The position numbers were made by a program, and so were the translations under genes. Below, piece by piece: positions 13,050 through 61,381 of a stretch of 64,000 bases of DNA; within the stretch, counting starts at the first letter, position 1; the number at the start of each line of letters is the position of its first letter. A model generated the notes under the pieces. It made no database searches, was not told the DNA's origin, and worked only from the letters and a program-made list of their open reading frames with translations. Source of the stretch: Escherichia phage AV110; sequence record OR352940.1; one strand, 5' to 3'.

Positions 13050-13071
13050 GTTGTCTCCTCGTTATGAAGGT

Positions 13072-31547: not shown

Positions 31548-32096
31548 TTAACGAGCCCATTTGATGATTTCTGTAATCAAACCATTACGTTCGCTTGCAT
31601 TAAATCCTATAACTTTGTTAGCACCATCATGATTAAGTAATTGATATGTTTGGATTTTGTTATGAATTGCAAACTCTTCAAAATGTGAAATGACTGTATT
31701 AAAACCGAATGAAGACAAAGTAATAAGGTCGTCTTCAAAACTTTCAGTCATTTCGTTACGTGTTAAAATAATTGTGAACACATCATGGTTTTGGCAAAGA
31801 CGAACATAATCCTGTTCATAAACGTCAAGAACCGAGTCAGCATCTTGTCGAATACGTCCATAAACCCAGTTACTAATATATCCACGGTCTAACAGATAAA
31901 TCTTAGTAGGGTCTAAATAATTCAACATCGTTTCGAAACAGCCAACTTCATTTCGAGACTTAACATCGAAACGCCCATCAACTGTTCGTTTAGGGAAATC
32001 AATCTTTACATATCTTTCACTAATTTCCATTATGTCATTAATGAAAGTTGTTTTACCAGCATTATCCGGGCCATCTACTAAAATAATTTTAGCCAT
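31548..32096 (-). CDS. P-loop kinase-like protein (182 aa)
   Basis: Walker A ILVDGPDNAGKTT at N-terminus, small-kinase size; no T4 counterpart at this position. Confidence 0.5.
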   Translation of the reverse strand: MAKIILVDGPDNAGKTTFINDIMEISERYVKIDFPKRTVDGRFDVKSRNEVGCFETMLNYLDPTKIYLLDRGYISNWVYGRIRQDADSVLDVYEQDYVRLCQNHDVFTIILTRNEMTESFEDDLITLSSFGFNTVISHFEEFAIHNKIQTYQLLNHDGANKVIGFNASERNGLITEIIKWAR

Positions 32097-32097
32097 T

Positions 32098-32997
32098 TTA
32101 TTCCTCGATTACGACATCTTCATATTTAGGTATATTATACGGCGAAGAAATTAAAGCATTAAAGTAGATGAACTCACCAAGACCTGGATGGAATACTTCT
32201 TCAGGATTTTCGAAATATTGAATTTTCGGACGCCCTTTAAGAATTTGATAGTACTCTGTTTTAGTTGGTTTAAAAATTCGAATCAGCGCTTCTTCAGGAT
32301 ACTTATTTCTGTCGAAGCTATTATTTGGATCGGTTATATAAAGCGGTTGGCCTAATTGAATTGCACATTCAACCACTTGTTCAAAACGATAGCACGGGTC
32401 ACTAATTCGAAATGGATGAAAAATACCATCTAGATAAATAGGAGCCAAATCACCTACAAGACGCTGCATGATGGAAGGACGTATAACTTTCTGCGTTACG
32501 ATAATCTTATTACCATCTGCACCTGCGTTAACCAGCACTTCTTTTTGACGTTCATTCAACACAGTAGTTTGAAGTGAACGATTAACCGACAACATATCAG
32601 TTTTTAAGAATTCATCAATATAAAAACGTGGTTTATTAGGGTCTGCAGTGATATTGAAATTGAATTCCACATCAAAAGCGCCGTCATATCCAGTGATATC
32701 TGTGATTAGAAAATCACAGTCATAATAAGCAATTAATGAATCAACCACAAATCCATTTTCAGACCAGAAATATTTACGAGTGTTATACGCGTTATCTTTA
32801 TACCATAATGGAACAAACTTAAATTCTGGAAAAAGACGTTCGCATTCTTTAATATCAGATGCATTACGTGGATATGTAATCACATCACCCGGATTAGCAC
32901 GGTGCAAATGAAGTTGGAAGTTGCCATCCTTAAGGATAGCATACTGTCCAGTTTCATAAGACCGCATACTCAAGATTGGTACGCGGAAAATAGCCAT
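32098..32997 (-). CDS. protein at beta-glucosyltransferase position (299 aa), possible glycosyltransferase
   Basis: Occupies the slot between 42 and uvsX where T4 has beta-gt (351 aa); no confident motif. Confidence 0.4.
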   Translation of the reverse strand: MAIFRVPILSMRSYETGQYAILKDGNFQLHLHRANPGDVITYPRNASDIKECERLFPEFKFVPLWYKDNAYNTRKYFWSENGFVVDSLIAYYDCDFLITDITGYDGAFDVEFNFNITADPNKPRFYIDEFLKTDMLSVNRSLQTTVLNERQKEVLVNAGADGNKIIVTQKVIRPSIMQRLVGDLAPIYLDGIFHPFRISDPCYRFEQVVECAIQLGQPLYITDPNNSFDRNKYPEEALIRIFKPTKTEYYQILKGRPKIQYFENPEEVFHPGLGEFIYFNALISSPYNIPKYEDVVIEE

Positions 32998-33713
32998 TAG
33001 TCAAGGAATCCTTTAACATAATCAAAATCACGTTCAAACACATGGGCACTTACCATGGTATGAGTATAATCACCAACTTCTACACCGCATTCGTTAGCGA
33101 TATAATGAAGTAATTTTCCTTGGAGATAAAAATCCAACTGCATAACAACAGCACAGTTCTGAGAACGCATATGACAGTGGGTATAAAGCTTACCATCACG
33201 AATATAATAAGTCACTGAGTCAGTACATGGATATTCAAGTGTTTCGTCTGAATCAAGCAAAGCCTGATCAGAACTTTCTAGAATTTGGAACACAACTCTT
33301 CGGGAGTTAGGCTTCTCTTTAAGTTCTTTTAGAAGAGCTGGTAATTGAGCCGCAATGCGAGGACCATAGAAAGTGTTGAAGTTCGCCGGCAAAACATCTG
33401 ATTTTGGTTTAGAAATAAATTTAGCGACATTAGGATATGTCTTAAACGCTTCTTCTGCGTTGGTACCACCAGAAATCATAAACTTCCAGAAGTCTTCGGC
33501 ATATTCATAAGAGATGCGGTTAATACGTGGGTCGGTCATTTTGAATGATGATGGAGTGTCAACAACTACTGTCATAGACCCAATTTCATTACAACGTCCA
33601 ATACGAGAATCAGTTACGAATTCCGGGTTTTCTAAAATTTCACGATTGACTGCTTTAAATGCGGTTTGAAAATCTGCGGCTTTGATATATTTCATTGTGT
33701 TATGTTTTCCCAT
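32997..33713 (-). CDS. 42: dCMP hydroxymethylase gp42 (thymidylate-synthase fold)
   Basis: 238 aa; TS-like core with catalytic Cys context (LEYPCTDSVTYY...HCHMRSQN); size/position as T4 gene 42. Confidence 0.65.
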   Translation of the reverse strand: MGKHNTMKYIKAADFQTAFKAVNREILENPEFVTDSRIGRCNEIGSMTVVVDTPSSFKMTDPRINRISYEYAEDFWKFMISGGTNAEEAFKTYPNVAKFISKPKSDVLPANFNTFYGPRIAAQLPALLKELKEKPNSRRVVFQILESSDQALLDSDETLEYPCTDSVTYYIRDGKLYTHCHMRSQNCAVVMQLDFYLQGKLLHYIANECGVEVGDYTHTMVSAHVFERDFDYVKGFLD

Positions 33714-33755: not shown

Positions 33756-33995
33756 TTATTTGAATTTCTTGACAATGTTGACATAACGTAAAGCTTCAGC
33801 ATCGATACTTCCAAGAACACTATGAAGAAATGCATCAGCGTAGTATTCCAATTGAACAGGTTCTTTAATCACTTTAGCCGCTTTAGTTTCAAACAGGCCC
33901 ATCAGGGCCTTTTTAAGAATTTGTTCATTAGTGTTCAGATTCATAGTCAAAATCTCTTCATTAAGTTGGTGGTTAAAAGTTTTTCTAGAAATCAT
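33756..33995 (-). CDS. hypothetical protein (79 aa)
   Basis: ORF with ATGA overlap to upstream enzyme gene. Confidence 0.45.
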   Translation of the reverse strand: MISRKTFNHQLNEEILTMNLNTNEQILKKALMGLFETKAAKVIKEPVQLEYYADAFLHSVLGSIDAEALRYVNIVKKFK

Positions 33996-35152
33996 TCCGG
34001 GTACCTCAAAGCGTCATCAGAGTTAGTTATATCAATAATAGATATAGAGTTTTCTGCTAACCCGTTTTTAGATAATTGACGTTTATAATATCTTTCACAA
34101 TATGTACACGTCGTCCCGCAGATTTCATTAGCACAATCGAAATCTGGATGTCTGAACCACCTTTTTTCTAAAAAGCCATCTAACAAAGAGGTTTCAATAT
34201 TTACTGTATGTGAAAACTCAGTTTCGTTTTCAAGAGTGAAAATAGTCTCTAAAGGCTTCCACAGTTCTAACAAATTACCTTCAAACTTTTCAGAAGCGTA
34301 TGCTTCAAGAACTTTCAAAATGTAGTCTGTGCTACCTGTACGTCCTGAAACTTTGAATTGAGTGATACCAATATCATTATAAAGTTTCAAATCTTGAGGA
34401 CGAACAAAACGAGTTCTCAACCAGTTAAATGGGTCTGTATCACGAGCTTTAATACAGTGCTGCATAGGATATCCGTTTAAGGATTTAGCATCATCAGCTG
34501 TAACATCAGTACTATGGAAAATATAGCAAGAGTCACGATAGCTACAATGTGTTGTATACCCTTTACCAGCATTAGAACAGAACTCATTTACAAGAACTTC
34601 AAATATTATATTGTTCTTATTGCAAAACTCTGCTGCACGCTTCAGGAAAGAAACTGAACGGTTCTTATGAATTCCACAGCAGACCTTTTTGATATTATAT
34701 TGGTCATGCAAGTATTTGATTTGAGTTACAGCATCGACATGTAGAATTGTTGAAACTTCAATCTCAATGTCTTTATTGACTTCACGAACAATTTCCATAA
34801 CAACAGGGTTAGCGATAGTAATACGCCATACGCCTATTGACCAAAGATACTGAACATAATCCTGAATAGCTTTCTTCTTCCACTCAACTAGTTCTCTTTT
34901 TGAACCAGGATTTATCGTGTTGAGTGTATAGTTAAAGCAAATACCTAATTCGTTACAACGTTTAACGTAATCTTCTAACATCTTTTTGTCAACGTCAGGA
35001 AGCCTAAAATCAGGTCTGGCTGCTACAAAAGCCATTTCTCTTGTAGAGCCATATACTTCGTTTATCAAGCTATTAGGATAGGTTTTATTGAGCTCTACGA
35101 TTTTATCAAGAAGAGCTAAATCAAAATTTGTTCCGATTTTAAAAGTATTCAT
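33992..35152 (-). CDS. Cys-rich enzyme of unknown function (386 aa), possible Fe-S protein
   Basis: Several Cys clusters including C-x4-C-x3-C-x2-C near C-terminus (DCANEICGTTCTYCERY); embedded in the sugar-nucleotide cluster. Confidence 0.5.
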   Translation of the reverse strand: MNTFKIGTNFDLALLDKIVELNKTYPNSLINEVYGSTREMAFVAARPDFRLPDVDKKMLEDYVKRCNELGICFNYTLNTINPGSKRELVEWKKKAIQDYVQYLWSIGVWRITIANPVVMEIVREVNKDIEIEVSTILHVDAVTQIKYLHDQYNIKKVCCGIHKNRSVSFLKRAAEFCNKNNIIFEVLVNEFCSNAGKGYTTHCSYRDSCYIFHSTDVTADDAKSLNGYPMQHCIKARDTDPFNWLRTRFVRPQDLKLYNDIGITQFKVSGRTGSTDYILKVLEAYASEKFEGNLLELWKPLETIFTLENETEFSHTVNIETSLLDGFLEKRWFRHPDFDCANEICGTTCTYCERYYKRQLSKNGLAENSISIIDITNSDDALRYPE

Positions 35153-35211: not shown

Positions 35212-35613
35212 TTATAGATTCGGTTTATACGATTTAAATGTTTCGAATTCGCCTTTATTCATAAGAGCTTTGAATTCGTCAGGACGCATAGCTTTGTCGT
35301 CGATAATCCAATCATATACTGGTTTATGTGTTAGCAAATTATGGTACTTCAAGCCAATGTTTGCCAAGTTCTGAATCAGACTTGGGAGAATGTCAATTGC
35401 TATACGACCAGGACCTACTGACTTCATACCGCGAGCAGTGTAAAGCGTTATTGTATGCCCTGCATCATACAGAGCATTAATGGCAGACACCATTTCGACG
35501 TCCGGTTTGAAGTTCACATAATCACGATTGTTATTCCACTCTGTTATACAATCATCGACATCAAAACAAAGATTAAGCATGTTTTCTACACGGTGCATTA
35601 GATTCGTTCCCAT
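35212..35613 (-). CDS. HAD-superfamily phosphatase-like protein
   Basis: Motif I LCFDVDDCIT, motif II ITLYTAR, motif III K...DD; start may be Met-6 (TAATG-coupled at about 35598). Confidence 0.55.
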   Translation of the reverse strand: MGTNLMHRVENMLNLCFDVDDCITEWNNNRDYVNFKPDVEMVSAINALYDAGHTITLYTARGMKSVGPGRIAIDILPSLIQNLANIGLKYHNLLTHKPVYDWIIDDKAMRPDEFKALMNKGEFETFKSYKPNL

Positions 35614-37283
35614 TGATGAGTGATATCGCCACCGATTGGACGATAAGAAACACCAGTTTCTTTATCAGTTAGTACCCATTTACCAGGATTTTTTGTAATC
35701 AGAGTAGCCGTTACAGGTTCTGCTACGTCATAACTAATAGAGCCGTCCTGAAGTACACGGCCCATGTTACGTAATTGCTTAGTCAGAAGTTCCATACCTT
35801 TATAATATGCGGCTACCGCTTTAAGTGGATTATTCTTGAAATAACCACCTAATGCAATCCAGATAATTGCTACAGCCAAATGATGATATTCATTAAACGA
35901 ACTCAGCTTTCCATATTTGTAAACTAATGGATTGATGTTAATAGTCACATTACAAGTTGTTTCATCAATAGTAAACTGTCCCCAGGTCGGATTAGCGTTG
36001 AATTCATCATAACCTGAAACAGCGTAAAGCACTTTAGCTTCGTCGTACAATTTCGGCCCGTAAATCTTGGTTTCGCCAAAATATCCACGAGGGTCGATAA
36101 ACTTGACTTCGCCGTTATCAGTAATCATAGTATTACTGAAGTTCGGGTCACCATGAATAACAGAGTACTGTCCCTGAGAACGGTTATGATAACGAATAAG
36201 GTGTTCTAAAGCTTGTTTCAGCATTGGCTTCAGACGTCCAATCTTAGTGTAGTTCACATGTGTGATTTTACCAAATGAATCAATCAATGGTTGAATGCTT
36301 TCACAACGATCAATAACTTTCGTATAGAATTCTTTAGTGAAATCACGACGAACAGTTTCAGGACTTACAAAATAAGTGTCTGCGCTGAATTTCAGTGCAT
36401 CTAAAATTGCATCAATAATTTGTGGACGAGCAAGACTTGATTTTGATTTAATATATTCAAATGCCGGCTTACCTTTAATGCGTTCCATTTCAAAGTTATT
36501 TTCATTAACAGAAACTAACTGAGGAACTGAATCTGATTTCACTTTCAAATACCACGAAATCTCATCTTTCTGAAGAGCTCGACCCTGTTCGGTTAATGCG
36601 AATTTAGTTACAGTTTCTTCGCCAATTTCAACTGCATTAAAACTACGGTTCAGTTCACGAACTTCATGGGCCTTTTCAAGTTTAGGCATATCACCAAGGT
36701 CGATGATATTCATAAGCTCTGATTTATTGAATGCGCCGCTGTAAAGGAATTCTACGAAATCACGTCCTTTGCAGTATTCATGAATTTCCTCATCGGTAGA
36801 ACCCATATAGAATTCCCAGTCTTTGAACTGATAAATTCCTACAACATTACCGCCTGTTTCACCTACATTAGTGATATTTTCACCATCGAAATTATACCGA
36901 CATTCATCACCCTTAACATAGATTGCGTTAACATTCCAAGACCAAGAACCAAAATCGGGAATAATATCACACCAGTTAACAATTACATTATGGCCGTCTA
37001 AATCTTTGTGTAATTTAGCAAGAGCATAAGCAGAACCATACGCTTCATCAACTGTACGAATAGTCACATTGAACCCTTCTTGCTCACAATAAGCTCGAAC
37101 AGTTTCAGCAAATTTTGAATGAACTACTACAATAATTTCATCTGCGCCAAGGTCAGAATAAATTGTATACAAATTGCTCAGAATAGTGTCTTGCTTATAG
37201 TTAACAAGCACCTTAGGAATATGATGCGTTATTGGATACAAACGAGTTGCCAGTCCAGCACCAAGAATAACAGCTTTTTTCAT
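35598..37283 (-). CDS. bifunctional sugar-1-phosphate nucleotidyltransferase / APH-like sugar kinase
   Basis: 561 aa; N-terminus AVILGAGLATRLYPIT (RmlA/GlmU-type NTase signature); C-terminus VIHGDPNFSNTMI and FIDPRG (aminoglycoside/choline-kinase Brenner and DFG-like motifs). Confidence 0.7.
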   Translation of the reverse strand: MKKAVILGAGLATRLYPITHHIPKVLVNYKQDTILSNLYTIYSDLGADEIIVVVHSKFAETVRAYCEQEGFNVTIRTVDEAYGSAYALAKLHKDLDGHNVIVNWCDIIPDFGSWSWNVNAIYVKGDECRYNFDGENITNVGETGGNVVGIYQFKDWEFYMGSTDEEIHEYCKGRDFVEFLYSGAFNKSELMNIIDLGDMPKLEKAHEVRELNRSFNAVEIGEETVTKFALTEQGRALQKDEISWYLKVKSDSVPQLVSVNENNFEMERIKGKPAFEYIKSKSSLARPQIIDAILDALKFSADTYFVSPETVRRDFTKEFYTKVIDRCESIQPLIDSFGKITHVNYTKIGRLKPMLKQALEHLIRYHNRSQGQYSVIHGDPNFSNTMITDNGEVKFIDPRGYFGETKIYGPKLYDEAKVLYAVSGYDEFNANPTWGQFTIDETTCNVTININPLVYKYGKLSSFNEYHHLAVAIIWIALGGYFKNNPLKAVAAYYKGMELLTKQLRNMGRVLQDGSISYDVAEPVTATLITKNPGKWVLTDKETGVSYRPIGGDITHQWERI

Positions 37284-37324: not shown

Positions 37325-37468
37325 CTAGTTAAAGCATTCATACTTTGCCTGTAGACCAATCATAATCCATCCAATTACAAGTGTTGGAATCATTACCGGA
37401 GCCGTTAAGCTCCAGTAGATAGTCATGGCAAGCATCAATAGTAAAAGTCCTATTGTTATTGCTTTCAT
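37325..37468 (-). CDS. small membrane protein (47 aa)
   Basis: Hand-found ORF MKAITIGLLLLMLAMTIYWSL..., ATGA-coupled to upstream SIS gene; sits where T4 has imm/imm.1. Confidence 0.35.
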   Translation of the reverse strand: MKAITIGLLLLMLAMTIYWSLTAPVMIPTLVIGWIMIGLQAKYECFN

Positions 37469-38100
37469 TGTTCGCCTCGTAACATGGCACCTAGTGCACC
37501 ACCTGGATGGAACTTAAGGAAGTCATTAGAGGTAAATCCACGTTCAGACGAAAGGTTGATAGCGAACGTATCGATAAGCGCTAACAACAATGTAGTAGAC
37601 ATTGTCGGAGCTAAAGAGTTCTCGTCAACTTCTACCGCGATACCGGTACAGAACGTATAATCAAAAAGAGCTTCGTATTCTTGTGGAATGTCAGGGTTAC
37701 AATGTAACAGAATCTGTTTAACCTGAGGACGAATCATACGAAGATGTTTAGCAACACCTATCATTTCTTCAGTCTTACCAGAACGACTGATGTGAACTAA
37801 TACATCATTAGGTGCAATAAATCCTGCGTCACCATGAGAATAATGCCCAGTGTTCAAGTACATACTTGGGATACCGAGTGAAGCAAAAGTCTCGGAAGCT
37901 TTAGTTGCGATATTAGCGTTCTTACCAACACCTGTAATAATTACTCGGCTTTCATAATTACTAAGTCCCGGGCGTCGAAGAGTTTCTAGAATAGCATTAT
38001 AACGAGCAGGGTTTTGACTAATTACTTTAGCCATAGTGGCAAGAGATGAAGCTTGTTTTACGATTGCGTCAATAGCGATAGTGATTGGTGTAGTTTTCAT
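37465..38100 (-). CDS. SIS-domain sugar-phosphate isomerase, arabinose-5-phosphate isomerase (KdsD/GutQ)-like
   Basis: 211 aa; KdsD-type SIS motifs (TFASLGIPS, HGDAGF, ISRSGKT, LAPTMSTT, GFTSNDF..HPGGALG); lacks CBS domains. Confidence 0.7.
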   Translation of the reverse strand: MKTTPITIAIDAIVKQASSLATMAKVISQNPARYNAILETLRRPGLSNYESRVIITGVGKNANIATKASETFASLGIPSMYLNTGHYSHGDAGFIAPNDVLVHISRSGKTEEMIGVAKHLRMIRPQVKQILLHCNPDIPQEYEALFDYTFCTGIAVEVDENSLAPTMSTTLLLALIDTFAINLSSERGFTSNDFLKFHPGGALGAMLRGEQ

Positions 38101-38140: not shown

Positions 38141-40852
38141 TCAAAAATCAAACATATCGAACAGAGATGCTTTCTTCTCGTAATCGAGTTTAGCTGCTGA
38201 TGTGAATCCTTCAAGTGGTTTAATAAATGTCTTCTCAAGGAGAACAGTGTAGTCCATCCAATGAAGTACGTCGTCTTTAATTAAATCTGTGATTTCAGTA
38301 CCAGAAGGCCATGCGATACATTTATCACCGAATGGGTTTCCTTCACGTAAAGGCAGAACATATACTTTTTCACCTTCTACAACTTGTGGTGCATCAATAT
38401 TACCTTTGATAGCTCGGTTATATGTCAGAATTCCACGAATATGGAACGGGCATTTAGGACCCGGGAATCCACCTACGTCATATTTAGCAATGTTATTCGC
38501 AGAAGATACCGACGCGATGCTAATATAATTCAATTGACGGAATTCTTTTTCAAACTCTTTAAAATATTCTTGTAATGATTCTTCACCTTCTTGAAGCATA
38601 CGACGAATACATTCTTTAAGAGCTTTCTGTACTGCTTTAGGAGTCGAAGATTTCTGAGTCTCTAGACCCATGATTTTGAGTTTAGGCTCAGCGTAACGAG
38701 TGCCTTCCATATCCCACACGTTTAATGCATAACGTTTCTTACCAGTCCAGAATCCACCAATACCTTTAGAACCGAGCGGAGGGCCAGCAATAGCTTCTCG
38801 GTCCATGAACATTAAGTGTTGTTTATTGTTCATGTATTCACACATTTCACGGAAACCTCTATCAATAGCAGGTTCCATACGTTCACGAGCGAACTTATCT
38901 AAGAAGTCTACCCAATGGTTGGTATCACGGAATTTAGATTCACCAACCTTATCGATAATTTTATCGGCAGATACGTAAATAGAGTCTGTATCACCATATA
39001 GAACGAAAGCTTCACCTTCTGTACCACAAACTTCATTCAGATATTCATTAACTTTACGTTCAATCCACTGTAAAGCCATTTGTCCGAATGTTGTGATTGC
39101 AGTAGCATTACGCAAATCATAATAACGGAACCAAACGTTGCCAAGTGCACCATAAAGTGAGTTGATAAGCAATTTACGGTTAATTTGTGCGGTCATACCT
39201 GCAACTTCAGTACGTTGAGCTCTAAACAACATTTCATTAAGAGATTTAGCAGACAACTTTTTAATCTTTTCTTTAATCTCATCACTGAAGTCGAAACGAT
39301 AATCAACATCTAATGGTTCGTCAACAGAAAGATTAGGATTATGCAATGCCTCTTTAATTATTTCACCATTACGTTGAGCTGCAAGCATATAACCTTTATG
39401 TTCTTTACGTTGATTAAAGACCTTAGTGATTTCAGTTGGAACTACACCATCACGGTCTTTATAATACATCATGCCGTTAGGAGAGCAACTGTACACATCT
39501 GAAGGACGTTCAGCGATTGCGTTAATATAATCATGCAATGGAGCTACTTTAAACGTTCCTGCTATTGTTTCCGGGCTAATATTCACTTGGCGAATAATAC
39601 TTGGATACAGAGATGTAAGGTCGAAACTCATTACATATTTGTATCGATTTGGAATAGGTTCCTTAACAAAAGCGCCAGGATAAGGTTGAACCGGGTGAGA
39701 ACGACCTTGTGGAATCACCTTGTTTTGTTCTTTAAGGCTATTAAAAATAATAGCATCCCAAGTTTTAATTGGACTGAACACAGATTGAATCTGAATTTTA
39801 GCATAATAACCCATGTCCAAGCTCAAGTTGATGAACTGACGCTTAGAATCAATTTGCAATACACGATACACGTCGATAATGTTATAAGAAATATATCGTT
39901 GGTGATTGCTTTCACGAAGCTTAGAAATAGGGCCGTCATATTTCAGTTTACCAACGTTCAATTCAAATTCTGAAATGTAATCCAGAGAATACGACGGTTG
40001 ATTGGTAAAAGAGAATTTTTTGTAAAGGTCAATGTAATCAAGAACAGAGATACCGAACAATGTAATGATTTCACGAGAACCATACATGTTTTCGATAACT
40101 TTAACACGAGTTTTACGATGCGGCGATAAACGTTTCGCAGTAGATTCGCCAAAAATATTCTTGATTCGGTTATACACATATGGAATATCAAATGACTCAA
40201 CGTTCCATCCAGTCAAAATGACAGGAGTTTTCTGTTGCCAGAAGTTGAGATATTCCATCAACAATTCTTTTTCGTTATCGAACGGCATATAAATGATTTT
40301 ATCGATAATTTCAGATGGAACTTCATCACCGCCTTGTTCTTGAAGCTTAGCAGCGATTTCAATAGACCATTCTTCTACATTACCATATGGAGAATTCAAT
40401 AGATCAAATACGTAGAACCTGTCGTCAATTGAGTCATAATGGGTGATAGCATCAATCGGATGTTTTGCTTGTGACGGCTCAGGGAACCCGTCCGGAGATG
40501 TTACTTCGATGTCGAAGTTAGCCACACGAATTTTTGTATGGTCGTATTTGATTTCATAGTTATAAGTGTCAGACAAATACGCCAATTTGAAATCGTCCAT
40601 GCCAAGTGCTTCAAGTCCGATATCTTCCATGCGTTTAATCCATTGGGAGGCATCACGCATATTAGCGAACAACTTACGAGTACACGGCTTACCGTAGATA
40701 TCGAAATATTTCGTAGCCTGACTTTCCGGACAATGAGCAAACAGTGATGGTTTATATTCTACTTCACGAGTACGTTCACGGCCATTAGAATCGATGTAAC
40801 GTTCAAAAATTGAATCACCAATCTGTTCAACCGTTAAGTAAAATTCTTTCAT
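38141..40852 (-). CDS. 43: DNA polymerase gp43 (family B)
   Basis: 903 aa; exo motifs FDIEV, YNIIDV, pol motifs DLTSLYPSI, YGDTDS; N-terminus matches RB69 gp43 as recalled. Confidence 0.95.
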   Translation of the reverse strand: MKEFYLTVEQIGDSIFERYIDSNGRERTREVEYKPSLFAHCPESQATKYFDIYGKPCTRKLFANMRDASQWIKRMEDIGLEALGMDDFKLAYLSDTYNYEIKYDHTKIRVANFDIEVTSPDGFPEPSQAKHPIDAITHYDSIDDRFYVFDLLNSPYGNVEEWSIEIAAKLQEQGGDEVPSEIIDKIIYMPFDNEKELLMEYLNFWQQKTPVILTGWNVESFDIPYVYNRIKNIFGESTAKRLSPHRKTRVKVIENMYGSREIITLFGISVLDYIDLYKKFSFTNQPSYSLDYISEFELNVGKLKYDGPISKLRESNHQRYISYNIIDVYRVLQIDSKRQFINLSLDMGYYAKIQIQSVFSPIKTWDAIIFNSLKEQNKVIPQGRSHPVQPYPGAFVKEPIPNRYKYVMSFDLTSLYPSIIRQVNISPETIAGTFKVAPLHDYINAIAERPSDVYSCSPNGMMYYKDRDGVVPTEITKVFNQRKEHKGYMLAAQRNGEIIKEALHNPNLSVDEPLDVDYRFDFSDEIKEKIKKLSAKSLNEMLFRAQRTEVAGMTAQINRKLLINSLYGALGNVWFRYYDLRNATAITTFGQMALQWIERKVNEYLNEVCGTEGEAFVLYGDTDSIYVSADKIIDKVGESKFRDTNHWVDFLDKFARERMEPAIDRGFREMCEYMNNKQHLMFMDREAIAGPPLGSKGIGGFWTGKKRYALNVWDMEGTRYAEPKLKIMGLETQKSSTPKAVQKALKECIRRMLQEGEESLQEYFKEFEKEFRQLNYISIASVSSANNIAKYDVGGFPGPKCPFHIRGILTYNRAIKGNIDAPQVVEGEKVYVLPLREGNPFGDKCIAWPSGTEITDLIKDDVLHWMDYTVLLEKTFIKPLEGFTSAAKLDYEKKASLFDMFDF

Positions 40853-46248: not shown

Positions 46249-46477
46249 TACACGCTTCAGCCATTTTAAGAATAGAGCCGGGAGTATCGTTGTCCATTAT
46301 ATTAAAGCTAAATTCAATAGCCCAGTCGGTGCAGACATGAACTGCTTTAACTTCATTGCCTTCAACGCGTAATGGCTCAATCCAATACTTGATGGTGTTC
46401 TCGAATCCATCATCGTCTTTAACGTCTATTTCAACTTCAAGCCCGAGCCCAGCATTGTTAAATTCATCTAAAGTCAT
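46220..46477 (-). CDS. hypothetical protein (85 aa)
   Basis: Position of T4 46.2; coupled. Confidence 0.5.
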   Translation of the reverse strand: MTLDEFNNAGLGLEVEIDVKDDDGFENTIKYWIEPLRVEGNEVKAVHVCTDWAIEFSFNIMDNDTPGSILKMAEACIEDAYNDED

Positions 46478-47493
46478 TGTGTTGCCTCAATATAAAGTTC
46501 GTTGGAATATTTGACCAGCGCTTCTCTGTCTTCGTCTGAGATATCTGGAATCGCGTCAATATATTCTTTAATGATATCTTGAAGTGATTTAATCTCAATT
46601 TCCTGGTCATCATCAGATTCAACACTGTTATCAAATTTAGAAACCATACGAAGAGAGTGAACTACTTTTTCAAGTTCAGATTCAAACTTAGTCAACTCTG
46701 AATCAATTTCTGATACTATAACACGTACGGCTAGATTAGTATAATCAGAATAATTAATTTTGCCTTTAAACGGATAAGTGATTCGTCGATGCCATGTTGT
46801 TTCATTAGGAATAAATTCCATACGTTCAACATCAGTGTCAAATACCCAGAATCCGCGTGGGTCGTTCTCATCGCCTGCAGTAAGGGTCCATGGTGTCCCA
46901 ATATATTTGACGTTAGCAGCTTCAGAGATTGTGTGGAAGTGGCCGGACCAGACTTGTTTATAGGTCTTTAAGAAATCAGGTTCAAGCCCATGAGACTTCA
47001 TTCCTTTATAGAAATAAAAGCCATTTAATTCCCAGTGCCCAACACAATACGCGGCGGAAGAAGTCTTGATGTGCTCTAAGATTTCACCTGTATTTTCTTC
47101 ACACATCCATGGAACGATATCAATCAGACATCCGTCAAAATCTACAGTAGTCGGATGCTCGTAAATAGTAAAGTTTTCAAATTGAGTTAACAATTCAGAA
47201 ACAGTGTTAGGTGTTATTGTATTCTTAAACGCCATGTCATGGTTTCCTATCGTGACATGAACGTGAATGCCTGCTTTAGAAATCATATCAACGATTTCAC
47301 GATTGAATTCCATTGTACGATGTGTTATTGCTTTACGGACGTCAAACCAATCACCGTACTGAATCCAAGTTTTAATCCCGTGTTTCTTAGAGTATTCAAT
47401 TGCTTGTTGAATACCATCACGTTGAATATCTTGAACCCATGGGTCGTCTTGTTTGACTCCGATATGGAAGTCGCCTAAGTGCAAAATTTTCAT
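46474..47493 (-). CDS. 47: recombination endonuclease subunit gp47 (Mre11/SbcD-like)
   Basis: 339 aa; calcineurin-like phosphoesterase motifs (LHLGDFH, GDWFD, GNHD, GHWE, GHFH). Confidence 0.9.
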   Translation of the reverse strand: MKILHLGDFHIGVKQDDPWVQDIQRDGIQQAIEYSKKHGIKTWIQYGDWFDVRKAITHRTMEFNREIVDMISKAGIHVHVTIGNHDMAFKNTITPNTVSELLTQFENFTIYEHPTTVDFDGCLIDIVPWMCEENTGEILEHIKTSSAAYCVGHWELNGFYFYKGMKSHGLEPDFLKTYKQVWSGHFHTISEAANVKYIGTPWTLTAGDENDPRGFWVFDTDVERMEFIPNETTWHRRITYPFKGKINYSDYTNLAVRVIVSEIDSELTKFESELEKVVHSLRMVSKFDNSVESDDDQEIEIKSLQDIIKEYIDAIPDISDEDREALVKYSNELYIEATQ

Positions 47494-47545
47494 ATTATTT
47501 CCTCATTAGTTAATTCATTTTATCATCCGTTTATAAAGCAAAAAA

Positions 47546-47563
47546 GGAACTCCGAAGAGTTCC
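47546..47563 (-). terminator. intrinsic terminator upstream of gene 47
   Basis: GGAACUC-UUCG-GAGUUCC followed by UUUUUUGCUUU. Confidence 0.6.
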
Positions 47564-47736
47564 TATCCACATAGTACACCGTACAGAGGCTCATTTGAAC
47601 TTTTAAATCGAATGGGCTTGTACGTAATAGTTCCTTCGGCAGAAGCTTTATCATAAGACTCTTTAAAACGTCTCATTCTTTCTGCTTTGCCTTTACGGAT
47701 TTTATCGAAATTTTCAGAAGTCGGGATGTTCGTCAT
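47563..47736 (-). CDS. small protein (57 aa)
   Basis: Hand-found ORF with GAGGTG RBS, followed directly by UUCG hairpin terminator; below track cut-off. Confidence 0.35.
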   Translation of the reverse strand: MTNIPTSENFDKIRKGKAERMRRFKESYDKASAEGTITYKPIRFKSSNEPLYGVLCG

Positions 47737-47775
47737 GCATAATCACCTCTCAGAAAATACCTAAACCGATTTCTC

Positions 47776-47997
47776 TCATCGTTTCCACCATTTCTTAACT
47801 TGAAATGAATCGACCCACACGAGTTGTTTTGGGTCTGCCTTTACAATAGGCGGACAAATTTCTGTAATAGAACCGTCGTGATATTCCTTTTCAGAAATTT
47901 TAACACAAAGAGGACCTCCCAATTTAAGGGTGAACCCTGCGTTCAGCTTCAGATGTTTAAACTTTGTTTGAACTAGCGCCATTAATGATGTCCTCAA
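47776..47997 (-). CDS. hypothetical protein (73 aa)
   Basis: Short ORF in the region where T4 carries alpha-gt. Confidence 0.4.
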   Translation of the reverse strand: MRTSLMALVQTKFKHLKLNAGFTLKLGGPLCVKISEKEYHDGSITEICPPIVKADPKQLVWVDSFQVKKWWKR

Positions 47998-48280
47998 TAG
48001 CCTGACGAGTAGTAACCCACTGGATTTTAATTAACTTGTCATTGTATGGTTGTCGTAGAATATCCCGAGATTTCTTAATAGCATATTCGTAAGCTTCGAA
48101 GTTGTTTTGAATTGCTGCTTCTTGAGCATGTGCATAAAGACGGTTTAGTTCAAAACGATTCTTTTTAAGAATCTTTTCGGATTTTTTACGTGCTTCAGCT
48201 TCATTTTTCTTTTGGATTTCTTGTAGCATTTTAGCTACTGCATCTTCTGCTTCTTTATTTTCAATAATCTCGGTAGTCAT
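47957..48280 (-). CDS. hypothetical protein (107 aa)
   Basis: Charged, probably helical. Confidence 0.5.
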   Translation of the reverse strand: MTTEIIENKEAEDAVAKMLQEIQKKNEAEARKKSEKILKKNRFELNRLYAHAQEAAIQNNFEAYEYAIKKSRDILRQPYNDKLIKIQWVTTRQAIEDIINGASSNKV

Positions 48281-48281
48281 A

Positions 48282-48575
48282 TTATCTCATTAAATTAAAA
48301 TAAAAACGTCCGTCCTCTTCAATACAGAACTCGTACTCAACTGGAGTTCCATTTATCGAAAATGACACGTCATGTGGGTTCAAAGGGTCGATGTCAAAAT
48401 TAATTTTAAATTCTCGACCCAACAGTTTTACCAAATAAGGGATTGCTTCGTCAAAAGGTTCTTCTAAGTAGTTAGAGATGTCAATTGTCATCCTCATATA
48501 AAAAATCCAAACTAGGCGAATCGCTAACAACTTCCTTCTTTTCAGCCCCAGGAGCTTTATAAGCGGATTCTTCAT
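48282..48575 (-). CDS. hypothetical protein, start uncertain
   Basis: 5' part overlaps gene 55 3' end in another frame; likely starts at internal Met near 48491-48497. Confidence 0.3.
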
Positions 48576-49038
48576 AATGCGTCATTTTATCGTAGATGTC
48601 TTGAATAAACGTTTCATCTACCAACGCTACCATATCATCGTCATGACTGTCGTAGACATTATGAACGAAGTAACTATATTTCTTTGCAACTTCCTTACGT
48701 TCTTTTTTGATACGTTGGACAAAAGCATTAAAACAAGCTCGAGTTATGTATGCATGTGGGTTATTGTACTTAGTTTCGTCGAAATTATGAAGTCCCTTAA
48801 TAGAGGCTTCAATCCCATCTGCAATCATCTCCTGCTTCCAAGACTGGGTATATCCTGAAAAGTTGAAACGTTTGGACAGGCCTTCGGCGATAAGCATAAT
48901 TGCTAAACCGATAGTATCATTCTGACGAATAATTTTGTTTGGGTCTTTATTATTTAAGAGCTCCTTTTTCCACTCGATTATAGCGGCGAGAAGCTCTTTA
49001 TTATTCACATAGTTATTTTTAGGTTTTTGTTCAGTCAT
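48481..49038 (-). CDS. 55: late sigma factor gp55
   Basis: 185 aa from [17 protein letters not shown] (ATG 49038, AGAGG RBS); matches T4 gp55 in length and sequence as recalled. Confidence 0.85.
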
Positions 49039-49110
49039 AAGTACCTCTTGGCTCAATTCATAGGTCTATTATATCATAATATTTAGAGACCTATCTTAAA
49101 GCACGAGATA

Positions 49111-52471: not shown

Positions 52472-52942
52472 TTAATCATGTTTCCACACCCCATCGGTAT
52501 TTGACCAAAGTCGCTGGTTATCTGATCCTCGCCACAGTTTTTTGGTCGGAAGATTTTTCTCATACTTCCCATCAATAATAACATCAACATATTTAAGCAT
52601 TTCTAGTTGTTTAATATCTTCAAACTTATATCCTGTCCACAACCAAATGCTTTTATTTGGATAAAGATTTTTTACTGTTTGAACAATGCAATGAATAACA
52701 TCTCGGTTATCAGGATAGAGAGGGTCACCTCCGGTTATAGTCAATCCTTCTATATAATCATTATTCAAACATTCAATTAATTGTTCTAGTGTTTCGCCAG
52801 TGAATGGAATACCATTTCTAGCATTCCATGTTGATTTATTATAACACCCTTCACATTTATGCAAACAACCTGTAACGAAAAGAACGACCCTGCAACCAGG
52901 GCCATTCACAAAATCGCAAGGATAAAATCTATCATAATTCAT
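52472..52942 (-). CDS. nrdG: anaerobic ribonucleotide reductase activating protein NrdG (radical SAM)
   Basis: 156 aa; radical-SAM cysteine cluster CLHKCEGC; overlaps nrdD end as in T4. Confidence 0.85.
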   Translation of the reverse strand: MNYDRFYPCDFVNGPGCRVVLFVTGCLHKCEGCYNKSTWNARNGIPFTGETLEQLIECLNNDYIEGLTITGGDPLYPDNRDVIHCIVQTVKNLYPNKSIWLWTGYKFEDIKQLEMLKYVDVIIDGKYEKNLPTKKLWRGSDNQRLWSNTDGVWKHD

Positions 52943-54756
52943 TGGTGTTTAACCCTATGCATGATTTCTTTATTTTTACCGAGATTAAATCCGCGTTCGT
53001 TCGGATTTCCCAAATAACCACAAGTTCTTCTTATTGTGTTCATCTTTTTAGGATCAGTTTCTCCGCAAACTGAACAAACAAATCCATTTTCAGTAGGAGT
53101 CATTTCATGAGTACTTCCGCATGTAAAACATTTATCTACTGGCATATTAACACCAAAATAATCTAAATGTTGTGCAGCATAATCCCATACAGCCTCAAGT
53201 CCCTTTAAATTGTTTTTCATATCTGGAAGTTCAACATAAGAAATGTGACCGCCTGTCGCAATGAAATGATACGGCGCTTCACGAGAAATCTTTTCAAACG
53301 GAGTAATATTTTCTTCTACTGAAACATGGAAACTATTAGTGTACCAGCCTTTATCTGTAACATCTTTTACACTTCCATATTTTTCTGTGTCGAGTTTACA
53401 AAAGCGATAACAAAGGTTTTCAGCAGGAGTAGAATATAAACTAAAAGCAAATCCGGTTCTTTCAGTCCACTGTTTAAGATGAGCATTCATTTTAGTTAAA
53501 ATTTCTTGTCCAATATCACGACCGACAAGAATATTCAATTCGTGAATACCAATGTATCCCAAAGACACTGAACTTCTACCGTTTTTAAATAACTCAATTA
53601 TATCGTCATCAGGTTTAAGACGAACCCCAAATGCACCTTCTTGGTAAAGAATAGGAGCAACAGTCGCTTTAACTCCTTTTAAGGAACTAATTCTACACAT
53701 CAAAGCTTCAAAACACAGGTCCATTCGTTCGTTAAATAGCTCAACAAATTTCTGTTCATTGAACTGTGTTCCAATATAAGAATCTAACGCAATACGAGGA
53801 AGATTCAGTGTTACAACACCAAGATTATTACGTCCATCAAGAATTTCATTACCAGTCGAATCTTTCCATACGCTCAAGAAACTACGGCAACCCATCGGAG
53901 AAACAGGAACTGAAGAACCGGTAATAGCTTTATTATTCTTAACCGAAATAATGTCAGGATACATTCTTTTGCTTGCACATTCTAACGCAAGTTGTTTAAT
54001 ATCATAGTTCGGATCGTCTTTATAAAGATTAACACCTTCTTCAACGAACATAACAAGCTTAGGGAAAATAGGAGTTATTCCATCACGACCAAGACCTTTA
54101 ATGCGGTTTTTAAGAATTGCCTTCTGAATCATTCGTTCAGTCCAATCGGTTCCCGTACCAAATGTAATTGTTACAAAAGGAGTTTGTCCGTTTGAACTAA
54201 AGAGAGTATTTACTTCATATTCATAAGCTTGGAATGCGTCATAGACATCTTTTTCTGTTTTAGATTGAGCATAATTCAGAATGTCTGGTATTTGCCATTT
54301 TTCTGCATCTTCAACATGTTTAGCGTATGTACGTTTAACATAAGGAGAAAGAACTTTATCGACATTCGCAAATGTAGTTCCGCCATACTGATGTGAAGCA
54401 ACCTGTGCAGTAATTTGTGCCATAATTGCAGTAGCAACGCCAATAGATTTAGGCGTTTCAATTTGAGCATTGCCTAATTTAAATCCATTCTCAAGCATCC
54501 CCTTTAAATCGACTAAACAGCAATTGGTAAACGGAAGAGCAGGAGAATAATCAATATCATGCATGTGAATGATTCCGCTTTCATGCGCATTCATAATAAA
54601 AGACGGGACCATATTTTTGGCAATGTGCTTAGACACAATACCAGCCATAAGGTCCCGTTGAGTTGGAAAAACACGAGAATCTTTATTAGCATTCTCGTTT
54701 AAAAGGTCTTTATTAGTTTTATGAATTAATCCTTCAATTTCTTTTTCAATTTTCAT
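52939..54756 (-). CDS. nrdD: anaerobic ribonucleotide reductase NrdD (glycyl radical enzyme)
   Basis: 605 aa; C-terminal glycyl-radical motif RTCGYLG and Zn-ribbon CFTCGSTHE...CSVCG; uninterrupted (no intron). Confidence 0.9.
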   Translation of the reverse strand: MKIEKEIEGLIHKTNKDLLNENANKDSRVFPTQRDLMAGIVSKHIAKNMVPSFIMNAHESGIIHMHDIDYSPALPFTNCCLVDLKGMLENGFKLGNAQIETPKSIGVATAIMAQITAQVASHQYGGTTFANVDKVLSPYVKRTYAKHVEDAEKWQIPDILNYAQSKTEKDVYDAFQAYEYEVNTLFSSNGQTPFVTITFGTGTDWTERMIQKAILKNRIKGLGRDGITPIFPKLVMFVEEGVNLYKDDPNYDIKQLALECASKRMYPDIISVKNNKAITGSSVPVSPMGCRSFLSVWKDSTGNEILDGRNNLGVVTLNLPRIALDSYIGTQFNEQKFVELFNERMDLCFEALMCRISSLKGVKATVAPILYQEGAFGVRLKPDDDIIELFKNGRSSVSLGYIGIHELNILVGRDIGQEILTKMNAHLKQWTERTGFAFSLYSTPAENLCYRFCKLDTEKYGSVKDVTDKGWYTNSFHVSVEENITPFEKISREAPYHFIATGGHISYVELPDMKNNLKGLEAVWDYAAQHLDYFGVNMPVDKCFTCGSTHEMTPTENGFVCSVCGETDPKKMNTIRRTCGYLGNPNERGFNLGKNKEIMHRVKHQ

Positions 54757-60379: not shown

Positions 60380-61381
60380 TTATTTCAGTAAAGTTACTTC
60401 AGAGATTTCCTCCCAACCATCTTTATCAGTTGAAATAAAATCTGCTACATAAAGAGCGGTACGTAATGATACATTGCGAAGACGAGATACATTAGCCTTC
60501 ATCCAGGACAATGCTTTATACGTTTCTGCATCAGTCAGACCACGTTTCTGCATCATGTCAGTAGATAATATTACATCTTCAACTCGAACCATAATCTCTT
60601 CATTAGAGTGTACTCCAAGGTCGAGATACACTGAGCGAGATACTAAAGCTTGAAGGTGTGGAGCAAGTTTCGAACCGCGTTCTAACTCTTTATCGATATC
60701 AACGTTTGTAATGAAAACGATAGTACCTTCAAACTCAAATTCTTTATCAATACCCTTATCATCGAGATAAGATGACGCAGTGCTCCAACAAACTTTGCGT
60801 TTATCTCCAGTATCTAATGCTGCTTTAAGAAGATTCAAGATGTCCATATCTGAGAATACGTCAACGTCATCGATTAAGAGAACGCTGTCTGCATCACGGT
60901 TGAGCCAAAGTTGTTCGTAAAGGCCAATACCAGAGATTTTACCATTAATGCTTTTGTATTTGATGAAACCATTATCATTAGCATTATTAAGTGCTTTATC
61001 CAGAGAATACGTCTTACCAATACCGGCTGCACCTGAAATAATGAGTGAACGAATTTTGCCATCGATAATGCCATTCGTCATCATGTTCATTACTTTAAAG
61101 CGTTTGTTGATACGAGTTTTCATATCTTCAGTGCTTTCAACAACTGCAACTGGTGATGTCTCAACTCCTTCCATTACGATGTCTGATTTGAAGACCCATA
61201 CTCCACGTTCAGAACCATCAATCATAACGAAAATTTTACCGTCACCTAAGTGGGAACATTCAGGATTAAGCTTTGCTGGGAACCAGGTCTTTGTGGCAAC
61301 ATAAGAACCAGAGATTTCGTTATTACGATAGATACCTTTTTTGATTTGAACGTTGAACATTTTATTCTCCAATTTACTCAT
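60380..61381 (-). CDS. P-loop NTPase, AAA-like (333 aa)
   Basis: Walker A ISGAAGIGKTYS, Walker B VLLIDDVD, sensor-like TIVFITN; own promoter. Confidence 0.6.
   Translation of the reverse strand: MSKLENKMFNVQIKKGIYRNNEISGSYVATKTWFPAKLNPECSHLGDGKIFVMIDGSERGVWVFKSDIVMEGVETSPVAVVESTEDMKTRINKRFKVMNMMTNGIIDGKIRSLIISGAAGIGKTYSLDKALNNANDNGFIKYKSINGKISGIGLYEQLWLNRDADSVLLIDDVDVFSDMDILNLLKAALDTGDKRKVCWSTASSYLDDKGIDKEFEFEGTIVFITNVDIDKELERGSKLAPHLQALVSRSVYLDLGVHSNEEIMVRVEDVILSTDMMQKRGLTDAETYKALSWMKANVSRLRNVSLRTALYVADFISTDKDGWEEISEVTLLK

Follow-up and report, generated by a model that had tools for sequence, protein, structure and literature searches.

We analyzed a 64-kb stretch of DNA (the window) from the ~169-kb genome of Escherichia phage AV110. 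In the ORF listing for the window, gene 47 and gene 55 are separated by 987 nt (47494-48480). This region contains the following features:

46474-47493, minus strand: gene 47, SbcD/Mre11-like nuclease subunit and left border of the interval (339-aa ORF; Pfam Metallophos)
47517-47564, minus strand: putative PmSL-type stem-loop and middle-promoter module (from a terminator scan, an RNA fold, and a motif scan)
47563-47736, minus strand: a-gt.2 orthologue, 57 aa (Pfam DUF5486, 5e-27)
47776-47982, minus strand: a-gt.3 orthologue, 68 aa from the ATG at 47982 (phrog_1648)
47957-48280, minus strand: a-gt.4 orthologue, 107 aa (Pfam DUF2654, 1e-27)
48282-48497, minus strand: a-gt.5 orthologue, 71 aa (Pfam DUF5491)
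48481-49038, minus strand: gene 55, late sigma factor and right border of the interval (185 aa from its ATG)

The two border genes are readily identified by alignment: the product of gene 47 is 75.8% identical to gp47 from T4 and 99.4% identical to gp47 from RB69, and the product of gene 55 is 89.2% and 99.5% identical to the corresponding proteins. Between them, the orthologues of a-gt.2 (74% identity to the T4 protein, E = 5e-29), a-gt.3 (69%, E = 3e-34), a-gt.4 (58%, E = 3e-38), and a-gt.5 (47%, E = 2e-18) are the sole genes, and they are in the same order as in T4. Three of these four small genes match Pfam families (DUF5486, DUF2654, and DUF5491). As in T4, a-gt.5 and gene 55 overlap, here by 17 nt at the 3' end of the latter. 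The longest ORFs on the plus strand within the interval encode at most 50 aa, and a search of 47494-48480 against Rfam gave no match.

The preliminary description of this DNA stated that the interval holds only short ORFs, of 57, 73, 107, and 97 aa, and the ORF listing gives exactly these, all on the minus strand. Two of these lengths are over-extensions. The 73-aa reading of a-gt.3 starts from a TTG, while the annotations of RB69 and JK45 start at the ATG, and the alignment of T4's a-gt.5 begins at M27 of the 97-aa ORF. Similarly, the ORF call for gene 55 (48481-49056) is too long, with the real ATG at 49038.

The a-gt gene is 1203 nt long, so it cannot fit between genes 47 and 55. With 987 nt, four orthologues of a-gt.2 to a-gt.5, and no match to a-gt, the claim that the interval lacks a-gt is correct. 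This arrangement is not peculiar to the window. The sequence at 46474-49056 is 98.3% identical to RB69, without gaps, and 46400-49100 is 99.2% identical to Mosigvirus mar005P1. RB69's own annotation has the identical layout (47, a-gt.2, a-gt.3, a-gt.4, a-gt.5, 55), but RB69 is a distinct phage: the a-gt.2 proteins, for example, are 93% identical. A collinear arrangement without a-gt is common to ~146 phage records in the collection that we searched. In T4, genes 46, 46.1, 46.2, 47, 55, and a-gt.2 to a-gt.5 are orthologous to and collinear with those in the window, but the order after gene 47 is 47.1, a-gt, mobB, a-gt.2. Like the window, Dhakavirus JS98 and Karamvirus CC31 have no a-gt between 47 and a-gt.2/a-gt.3, although JS98 keeps 47.1. 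The genes a-gt.2 to a-gt.5 are present with or without a-gt, which makes a link to glucosylation unlikely. Our literature search found no functional data for these four genes.

To look for glucosyltransferases beyond this interval, we searched the window and the complete genome of JK45 (170,740 bp) with tblastn and phmmer. JK45 is 94-98% identical to the window over the aligned parts and served as the whole-genome check, in which a strain-specific acquisition outside the window would not show up. T4's a-gt (400 aa) had no homologue in either. The best matches (E = 0.011-0.08, over 69-85 aa) fell in two unrelated ORFs, one of them AAA-ATPase-like. The match at 60995-61234, with E = 0.011 from a sensitive tblastn search, disappeared with default settings, so we attribute it to chance. 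It lies in an ORF (60380-61381) with sub-threshold Pfam matches to AAA/STAND NTPases and a HTH, and this ORF corresponds to a gene noted as nrdC.10 in JK45. The RB14/T2-type ba-gt had no homologue either; its best match in the window or JK45 (E = 0.3-0.8 over 58 aa) was within the topoisomerase gene 52. The preliminary description had also considered b-gt to be missing, and indeed T4's b-gt had no match at E ≤ 1 in the window or in JK45. In sum, the tblastn comparison of a-gt and b-gt that the preliminary description had asked for found no homologue in the window or the complete JK45 genome, nor did we find in them a glucosyltransferase homologue elsewhere, which it had named as the finding that would refute its reading. 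The annotation of JK45 does not include a glucosyltransferase anywhere in the complete genome.

We also considered whether a-gt, b-gt, or ba-gt was merely relocated, so that an orthologue outside of the 47-55 interval still glucosylates hydroxymethylcytosine (hmC). The window covers only 64 kb of the genome, and accessory genes do shuffle: imm and imm.1 are at 26.7-27.4 kb here, and not between 42 and 43. Nevertheless, we think that relocation is extremely unlikely. The best matches to a-gt or ba-gt, in the window and in complete JK45, are at E = 0.011-0.8 and to unrelated ORFs; there is no gp42-type hydroxymethylase to supply the acceptor (see below); BlastP found no such glucosyltransferase in RB69 (Thomas et al. 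2018, PMC6024577); and the DNA of RB69 and NicPhage contains arabinose, not glucose (PMC13326640, PMC13390438). Diverged copies are not expected either. In the phage collection, homologues of a-gt are at least 90% identical in 502 records and 60-80% identical in 143 records, mainly from Klebsiella phages, and just 10 records have homologues below 60% identity. These bands leave no room for diverged copies in the ~150 Mosigvirus records.

In T4, gp42 makes hmC, and a-gt and b-gt glucosylate it. The window encodes a different set of proteins for modifying cytosine:

10089-11189, minus strand: GT-B (GT4-like) glycosyltransferase, 366 aa, corresponding to RB69 ORF003c/gp3, the proposed second arabinosyltransferase
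31548-32096, minus strand: thymidylate-kinase-like nucleotide kinase, RB69 gp45 (98.9% identity to RB69p045; phrog_761, thymidylate kinase)
32098-32997, minus strand: GT-B glycosyltransferase, 299 aa, corresponding to RB69 gp46:47, the proposed first arabinosyltransferase
32997-33713, minus strand: thymidylate-synthase-family enzyme, corresponding to RB69 gp48, 5-hydroxy-dCMP synthase (Pfam Thymidylat_synt)
33992-35152, minus strand: U32-peptidase-like protein, RB69 gp50, with a possible role in the pathway (Pfam Peptidase_U32; 99.2% identity to RB69p050)
35212-35598, minus strand: HAD-type phosphatase, RB69 gp51, equivalent to AfhF from HY126 (99.2% identity to RB69p051; phrog_1238)
35598-37283, minus strand: bifunctional sugar kinase and nucleotidyltransferase, RB69 gp52:53, equivalent to AfhE from HY126 (561-aa ORF; predicted to make UDP-arabinofuranose)
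37465-38100, minus strand: arabinose-5-phosphate isomerase, RB69 gp55 (Pfam SIS; phrog_5670, 2e-116; 96.7% identity to RB69p055)

Eleven proteins of the modification cluster are 92-99.5% identical to their counterparts in RB69, and for the ten with an assigned function, the range is about 97-99.5%. JS98 has an RB69-like cluster as well, with homologues of orf045c, orf047c, orf048c, orf051c, and orf052c.

The thymidylate-synthase-family (ThyA-family) protein is 98.7% identical to RB69p048 but only 25% identical to gp42 from T4, so we rejected orthology to the T4 hydroxymethylase. The activity of RB69 gp48 as a 5-hydroxy-dCMP synthase was demonstrated experimentally (PMC13326640), and the protein in the window would likewise make 5-hydroxy-dCMP in place of 5-hydroxymethyl-dCMP. 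Thus the base itself is probably changed, to 5-hydroxycytosine rather than 5-hydroxymethylcytosine, which the preliminary description did not foresee.

The 299-aa glycosyltransferase gene adjoins this ThyA homologue. In T4, b-gt lies between the ThyA-family gene and uvsX; here, that position is occupied by the 299-aa GT-B protein, which is unrelated in sequence to b-gt, and by the kinase. The gene for the 366-aa protein lies between rIIA.1 and gene 39. This protein is 99.5% identical to RB69p003, has no match in Pfam, and is ~98% identical to PDB entries 9iqz/9ir0, "phage HY126 glycosyltransferase" (E = 7e-249). (We discarded an AlphaFold2 model of it, which was built from 6 sequences and had a pLDDT of 59, and used the match to 9iqz instead.) For both transferases, two Rossmann-like domains and structural matches to known GT-B enzymes indicate the GT-B fold. 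Together, the two glycosyltransferases are 98-99.5% identical to gp46:47 and gp3 from RB69, where they are in the same positions and have the same neighbors. Using profiles of both transferases, hmmsearch found no further paralogues in the window or in JK45, except for a duplicated fragment in JK45.

The set of genes for supplying UDP-arabinose is complete: the arabinose-5-phosphate isomerase, the bifunctional kinase/uridylyltransferase, and the HAD phosphatase are all present, at 97-99% identity to their RB69 counterparts. RB69 gp51, like AfhF from HY126, converts arabinose-1,5-bisphosphate to arabinose-1-phosphate, as stated in PMC13326640 with reference to He et al. 2026. The product of 35598-37283 matches Pfam NTP_transferase at its N terminus, has weak matches to kinases at its C terminus, and is 98-99% identical to RB69p052 and RB69p053. 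The RB69 record splits both this gene (052/053) and the gene for the first transferase (046/047). The single ORFs of 561 and 299 aa in the window agree with the explanation in the literature that the split genes of RB69 are due to sequencing errors.

Chemical analyses of the DNA of RB69 and its close relative NicPhage found mono- and di-arabinosylated 5-hydroxycytosine, without glucose (PMC6024577, PMC13326640, PMC13390438). Homologues of the two GT-B enzymes from DLP3 used UDP-arabinofuranose in vitro; single glycosyltransferases were inactive in vitro (PMC13326640).

The window comes from an RB69-like Mosigvirus, a relative of T4. Given the near-identity of its proteins to those of RB69, NicPhage, and HY126, the DNA of the phage very probably carries arabinose on 5-hydroxycytosine instead of glucosyl-hydroxymethylcytosine. 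The isomerase, the kinase/uridylyltransferase, and the phosphatase would form a phage-encoded route to UDP-arabinofuranose, and the 299-aa and 366-aa enzymes would attach the first and the second arabinose, respectively, to the 5-hydroxyl of cytosine. T4's a-gt depends on UDP-glucose and on a hydroxymethyl group as the acceptor, and an arabinosylating phage would offer it no substrate. The proposal that glucosylation has been replaced entirely is supported by the lack of homologues of all three glucosyltransferases in the window and JK45, by the RB69 arabinosylation set at about 97-99.5% identity, and by the arabinosylated DNA of RB69 and NicPhage.

Could the two GT-B enzymes be non-orthologous glucosyltransferases, so that glucosylation is kept by different enzymes? 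They share the GT-B fold with a-gt and b-gt, and one of them is in the position of b-gt. Also, their top structural neighbors use UDP-glucose or UDP-GlcNAc, but the fold does not tell the donor sugar. We consider this very unlikely because the enzymes are so similar (98-99.5% identity) to gp46:47 and gp3 from RB69, whose 5-hydroxycytosine bears one or two arabinoses (PMC13326640). Furthermore, the neighboring genes encode an arabinose-5-phosphate isomerase and a sugar-1-phosphate uridylyltransferase/kinase, and the DLP3 homologues accept UDP-arabinofuranose, which also points to arabinose as the sugar.

The arabinosyl-5-hydroxycytosine system of RB69 was described by Thomas et al. 2018 (PMC6024577) and Lee et al. 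2026 (PMC13326640), and the latter also attributes work on it to He et al. 2026 and Mahler et al. 2025. That arabinose takes the place of glucose in the RB69 group is therefore already published (2018, 2025-26). An empty a-gt slot alone is no proof of which modification a phage makes, because in CC31 the slot is empty, yet the genes for glucosylating hmC, b-gt and ba-gt, are retained, unlike in the window. Restriction assays, which the preliminary description had proposed, are also a less clean discriminator of glucosylation than they might seem, because BrxU, a GmrSD-family enzyme, cuts arabinosylated Mosigvirus DNA too (PMC13390438).

The type of sugar on its DNA determines the restriction, CRISPR, and type IV defense systems that a T4-like phage evades or sets off, as well as its ability to exchange genes with T4. 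The modification is relevant to phage therapy and engineering for this reason. Current annotations call both putative arabinosyltransferases and the 5-hydroxy-dCMP synthase either "hypothetical" or "dCMP hydroxymethylase," and the two transferases are invisible to Pfam and PHROGs. As a result, annotation-based scans will keep rediscovering an apparently missing transferase.

We now return to the slot itself. Only 69 nt lie between the start of gene 47 and the stop of a-gt.2, versus a ~2.3-kb block of 47.1, a-gt, and mobB in T4. Within these 69 nt, the terminator scan predicts a hairpin (47564-47545) with an 8-bp stem, a UUCG loop, and a U-run. Its fold has a predicted energy of -13.9 kcal/mol (z = -3.8), and none of 200 shuffled sequences was as stable. 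In the motif scan, the hairpin is followed by a MotA box (TGCTTTA, 47540-47534) and, after 11 nt, by a -10 box (TAAAAT, 47522-47517). From these motifs, we infer that the module may act as both a terminator and a promoter. A similar module is found upstream of gene 39.

Composite promoter-terminator motifs known as PeSLs and PmSLs occur in T4-like phages (Arbiol et al. 2010, PMC2839356; Comeau et al. 2014, PMC4122927). In a PmSL, the promoter that directly follows the stem-loop has a TGCTT Mot box together with a -10 box. The module in the window is of this variant, with the two boxes at the proper distance, and it lies, as PeSLs and PmSLs do, at the border of a variably present gene. The published PmSLs are from vibriophage nt-1, and PeSLs are mainly in hyperplastic regions (PMC2839356, PMC4122927), while the module described here is at the a-gt slot; we found no report of this slot as an example in the literature that we searched.

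In alignments, copies of the module, with the core TGCTTTATA, lie on each side of a-gt in both T4 and Klebsiella phage Mineola, while the window, RB69, JK45, and JS98 have a single copy. In T4, the same type of hairpin and MotA box follows a-gt.2, as it does in the window, and the extra 2.3 kb comes with a second copy. These repeated modules suggest homologous recombination of the PeSL/PmSL type as the likely mechanism by which the a-gt cassette would be gained or lost. This is our small addition to the published picture. We tentatively propose, with a little less than even confidence, that a-gt is a mobile cassette bounded by PmSL modules and that the hybrid module at 47517-47564 is a scar or an empty target of recombination. 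However, the modules are ~45-nt motifs that are also ordinary regulatory signals, so finding them on either side of a-gt may reflect no more than normal gene punctuation.

Of the five genera that we sampled, Tequatrovirus and Jiaodavirus have a-gt, and the other three (Mosigvirus, Dhakavirus, and Karamvirus) lack it. The empty slot might be ancestral: Mosigvirus would never have had a-gt, and the cassette, along with one copy of the module, would have been inserted in the lineages of Tequatrovirus and Jiaodavirus. This alternative concerns only the direction of the event. It is quite plausible, if somewhat short of an even chance, as three of the five genera lack a-gt at this site, and nearly all homologues of a-gt in the collection are from Tequatrovirus-like and Klebsiella phages. 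The slot is otherwise variable too: only T4 and JS98 have 47.1, and only T4 has mobB. On the other hand, gp47 and gp55 from the window are closest to T4 (75.8% and 89.2% identity) and less similar to Mineola (66.7% and 76.5%), and the a-gt proteins of T4 and Mineola, which are encoded in the same slot, are 66.8% identical, near the 70.5% identity of their gp47 proteins. This fits vertical descent of a-gt and its loss in Mosigvirus. From the identities of these two proteins, gp47 and gp55, we lean weakly towards loss rather than gain. If a-gt is indeed a mobile cassette bounded by modules, then T-even phages would switch the sugar modification of their DNA by module-mediated cassette exchange, and a-gt.2 to a-gt.5, having no part in glucosylation, would be left in place.

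The preliminary description held that no alpha-glucosyltransferase (a-gt) lies between genes 47 and 55, and this is borne out. The minus strand carries every gene of this region, and the 987 nt between genes 47 and 55 contain only orthologs of T4's a-gt.2 to a-gt.5, in the T4 order:

46474-47493, minus strand: gene 47 (339 aa; Pfam Metallophos; 75.8% identity to T4 gp47)
47563-47736, minus strand: a-gt.2 ortholog (74% identity to T4)
47776-47982, minus strand: a-gt.3 ortholog (69% identity to T4; real protein 68 aa)
47957-48280, minus strand: a-gt.4 ortholog (58% identity to T4)
48282-48497, minus strand: a-gt.5 ortholog (47% identity to T4; real protein 71 aa)
48481-49038, minus strand: gene 55 (185 aa counted from ATG; 89.2% identity to T4 gp55)

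These are the ORFs that had been described as 57, 73, 107, and 97 aa, but the 73- and 97-aa versions are mechanical over-extensions of the 68- and 71-aa proteins. Three of the four small proteins match Pfam families (DUF5486, DUF2654, and DUF5491), and an Rfam scan of the interval found no RNA family. The 17-nt overlap of a-gt.5 with gene 55 is also present in T4. Since the T4 order is 47, 47.1, a-gt, mobB, a-gt.2, a-gt.3, a-gt.4, a-gt.5, 55, the absent part is the 2.3-kb 47.1/a-gt/mobB block, with a 69-nt spacer instead.

We searched the window and the complete genome of a close relative, Shigella phage JK45 (170,740 bp, joined from five pieces), with a-gt and beta-glucosyltransferase (b-gt) from T4 and the T2-type beta-alpha-glucosyltransferase (ba-gt) from RB14. 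Both tblastn and phmmer gave only short matches in unrelated ORFs (best E = 0.011–0.8), so the tblastn check proposed for a-gt and b-gt found no homolog by sequence in either. The JK45 record annotates none of its genes as a glucosyltransferase. Similarly, Thomas et al. found no glucosyltransferase in RB69 with BlastP (PMC6024577). Across a collection of 50,697 phage records, a-gt homologs form clean identity bands: at least 90% in 502 records (T4-like) and 60–80% in 143 (mainly Klebsiella phages), with just 10 records below 60%. We found ba-gt in 689 records and b-gt in 126. No Mosigvirus-type record was among the matches listed for any of the three.

Over window 46400-49100, identity is 99.2% to Mosigvirus mar005P1 and 98.5–99% to many further RB69-like phages, and the collinear layout without a-gt is common to 146 phage records. 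Window 46474-49056 aligns to RB69 with 98.3% identity and zero gaps, and RB69's GenBank annotation has a-gt.2 to a-gt.5 between 47 and 55 and does not list a-gt. The top match for window 1-25000 is NicPhage (97.7%). That RB69-type phages have neither a-gt nor b-gt could be read from the RB69 annotation as soon as it was deposited, and was analyzed in 2018; the chemistry and enzymes that take their place were resolved in 2025–26. The finding is therefore correct yet already known, and the window is one further member of a well-sampled genus.

The broader claim, that glucosylation was replaced entirely, is also correct: by sequence, no a-gt, b-gt, or ba-gt homolog was found in the window or JK45, and the entire RB69 arabinose modification system is present, with protein identities of 97–99.5%. 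The cluster is bordered by uvsX (30277-31449) and DNA polymerase (38141-40852), and one gene stands apart. Except for the two glycosyltransferases, functions are from Pfam/PHROG:

31548-32096: thymidylate-kinase-like kinase
32098-32997: 299-aa GT-B glycosyltransferase (counterpart of RB69 gp46:47)
32997-33713: thymidylate-synthase-family enzyme (ThyA homolog)
33992-35152: U32-like protein
35212-35598: HAD phosphatase
35598-37283: 561-aa nucleotidyltransferase/kinase fusion
37465-38100: arabinose-5-phosphate isomerase
10089-11189: 366-aa GT-B glycosyltransferase (counterpart of RB69 gp3), between rIIA.1 and gene 39

Besides the sugar, the acceptor base is changed. The ThyA homolog is only 25% identical to T4 gp42, while neighboring core proteins are 57–89% identical to their T4 counterparts. 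Its identity to RB69 gp48 is 98.7%, and that enzyme was demonstrated experimentally to make 5-hydroxy-dCMP, not 5-hydroxymethyl-dCMP (PMC13326640). The 299-aa protein adjoins the ThyA-family gene, which is the position of b-gt in T4 and ba-gt in RB14; b-gt is missing by sequence, as had been claimed, but its position is occupied by a different GT-B enzyme. The 366-aa protein is ~98% identical to a solved structure (9iqz/9ir0, "phage HY126 glycosyltransferase, GT4-like"). A glucosyltransferase homolog elsewhere had been named as evidence against replacement. None was found by sequence in the window or JK45. The genome does encode remote structural homologs of a-gt, and these literally fit that description, yet they belong to the replacement.

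The DNA of RB69 and its close relative NicPhage contains mono- and di-arabinosylated 5-hydroxycytosine, and RB69's proposed arabinosyltransferases are gp46:47 (first) and gp3 (second); reconstitution of the UDP-arabinofuranose route, with AfhE and AfhF in HY126, has also been achieved (PMC13326640, PMC13390438, PMC6024577). Because its system is nearly identical to those of the studied phages, we predict that AV110 DNA contains mono- and di-arabinosyl-5-hydroxy-dC as well. The proposed restriction test with glucosyl-hmC-specific systems would discriminate only partly, because BrxU, a GmrSD-family enzyme, cleaves arabinosylated Mosigvirus DNA (PMC13390438). For U32-peptidase-like RB69 gp50 (the counterpart of 33992-35152), "sugar or heterocycle reductase" was only suggested (PMC13326640).

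The modification type cannot be diagnosed from an empty a-gt slot, as Karamvirus CC31 (47, small ORF, a-gt.3, a-gt.4, a-gt.5, 55) lacks a-gt there but retains b-gt and ba-gt. Dhakavirus JS98 (47, 47.1, a-gt.2 to a-gt.5, 55) has an RB69-like cluster, although the U32-peptidase-like gene was not seen in the examined stretch. In contrast, Jiaodavirus Mineola has 47, a-gt, a-gt.2 to a-gt.5, 55.

The junction between a-gt.2 and gene 47 is a stem-loop plus a predicted MotA-type middle promoter (PmSL type), followed by a Shine-Dalgarno sequence and gene 47's ATG:

47564-47545, minus strand: hairpin directly after the a-gt.2 stop codon (8 bp, UUCG loop and U-run; -13.9 kcal/mol, z -3.8)
47540-47534, minus strand: MotA-box core TGCTTTA
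47522-47517, minus strand: TAAAAT, 11 nt after TGCTTTA

Copies of this module share a stop codon, a UUCG hairpin rich in GC, a T-rich stretch, and (T)GCTTTATA. There is one copy in each of the window, RB69, JK45, and JS98, whereas T4 and Mineola have two, after a-gt.2 and after a-gt, so that modules bracket the a-gt cassette; this is the sole small addition here to what was known. In the window's module, the left half matches T4's copy after a-gt.2, and the right half (CGGATGATAAAATGA) is similar to T4's copy before 47.1 (CGGAGTTTGATATAATGA). Recombination between repeated composite promoter-terminator motifs (PeSLs, and the Mot-box variant PmSL) has been described for T4-like phages (PMC2839356, PMC4122927). 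Mixed halves are expected if the cassette was lost or gained by recombination between such modules. This may have happened here, although the motifs are short, are also ordinary regulatory signals, and have a similar counterpart before gene 39. We lean towards loss in Mosigvirus rather than gain elsewhere, because T4 is closest to the window on gp47 and gp55, and because T4 and Mineola are about as similar in a-gt (66.8%) as in gp47 (70.5%). On the other hand, a-gt is missing from three of the five genera sampled.

The module upstream of gene 39 (window 13040-13110, near 13096, minus strand) is AAGGGC-TTCG-GCCCTT, then TTTTGCTTTAGATTTCGGATGATAGAAT, with a T-run, TGCTTTA, and a -10 element, and closely resembles the 47/a-gt.2 junction module. 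It is immediately upstream of gene 39 (11232-13049), the 5' neighbor of the 366-aa glycosyltransferase gene. Homologs of imm and imm.1 (64% and 34% identity to T4) are at 26735-26980 and 27057-27404 (minus strand), near the spackle/gene 61 region; their T4 counterparts sit between genes 42 and 43, where the window has the arabinose genes. RB69's record splits ORF046/047 and ORF052/053. These are uninterrupted 299-aa and 561-aa ORFs in the window (32098-32997 and 35598-37283), which supports the published view that the splits are sequencing errors.

RefSeq (NC_054940.1) classifies JK45 as a Tequatrovirus ("Tequatrovirus jaykay"). It has the look of a Mosigvirus instead, because it is 94–98% identical to the RB69-like window over the aligned parts, has the arabinose cluster, and lacks a-gt, b-gt, and ba-gt. 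Its ThyA-family gene (L005 25043-25759; L numbers are pieces of the JK45 record) is labeled "dCMP hydroxymethylase," which is probably wrong, given this family's identities to T4 gp42 and RB69 gp48; both glycosyltransferases are labeled "hypothetical protein." The window's nrdD is one intact 605-aa ORF (52939-54756); JK45's (L009 840-3702) is split by a ~1 kb insertion encoding an I-TevII-like homing endonuclease. JK45 also has a tandem duplication of ~500 bp (L005 2412-3417; window counterpart 9981-10483), which could be real or an assembly artifact. It yields a 136-aa ORF (gp003) that repeats, over its last 130 residues and at 100% identity, the C-terminal third of the 366-aa glycosyltransferase; this segment is single-copy in the window and RB69. 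Finally, beyond the window, a JK45 gene annotated as "phospho-2-dehydro-3-deoxyheptonate aldolase" (L010 41606-42598; DAHP/KDO8P-synthase-like) adjoins dCMP deaminase. Because arabinose-5-phosphate is a substrate of KDO8P synthases, this gene could conceivably be connected with the arabinose pathway.
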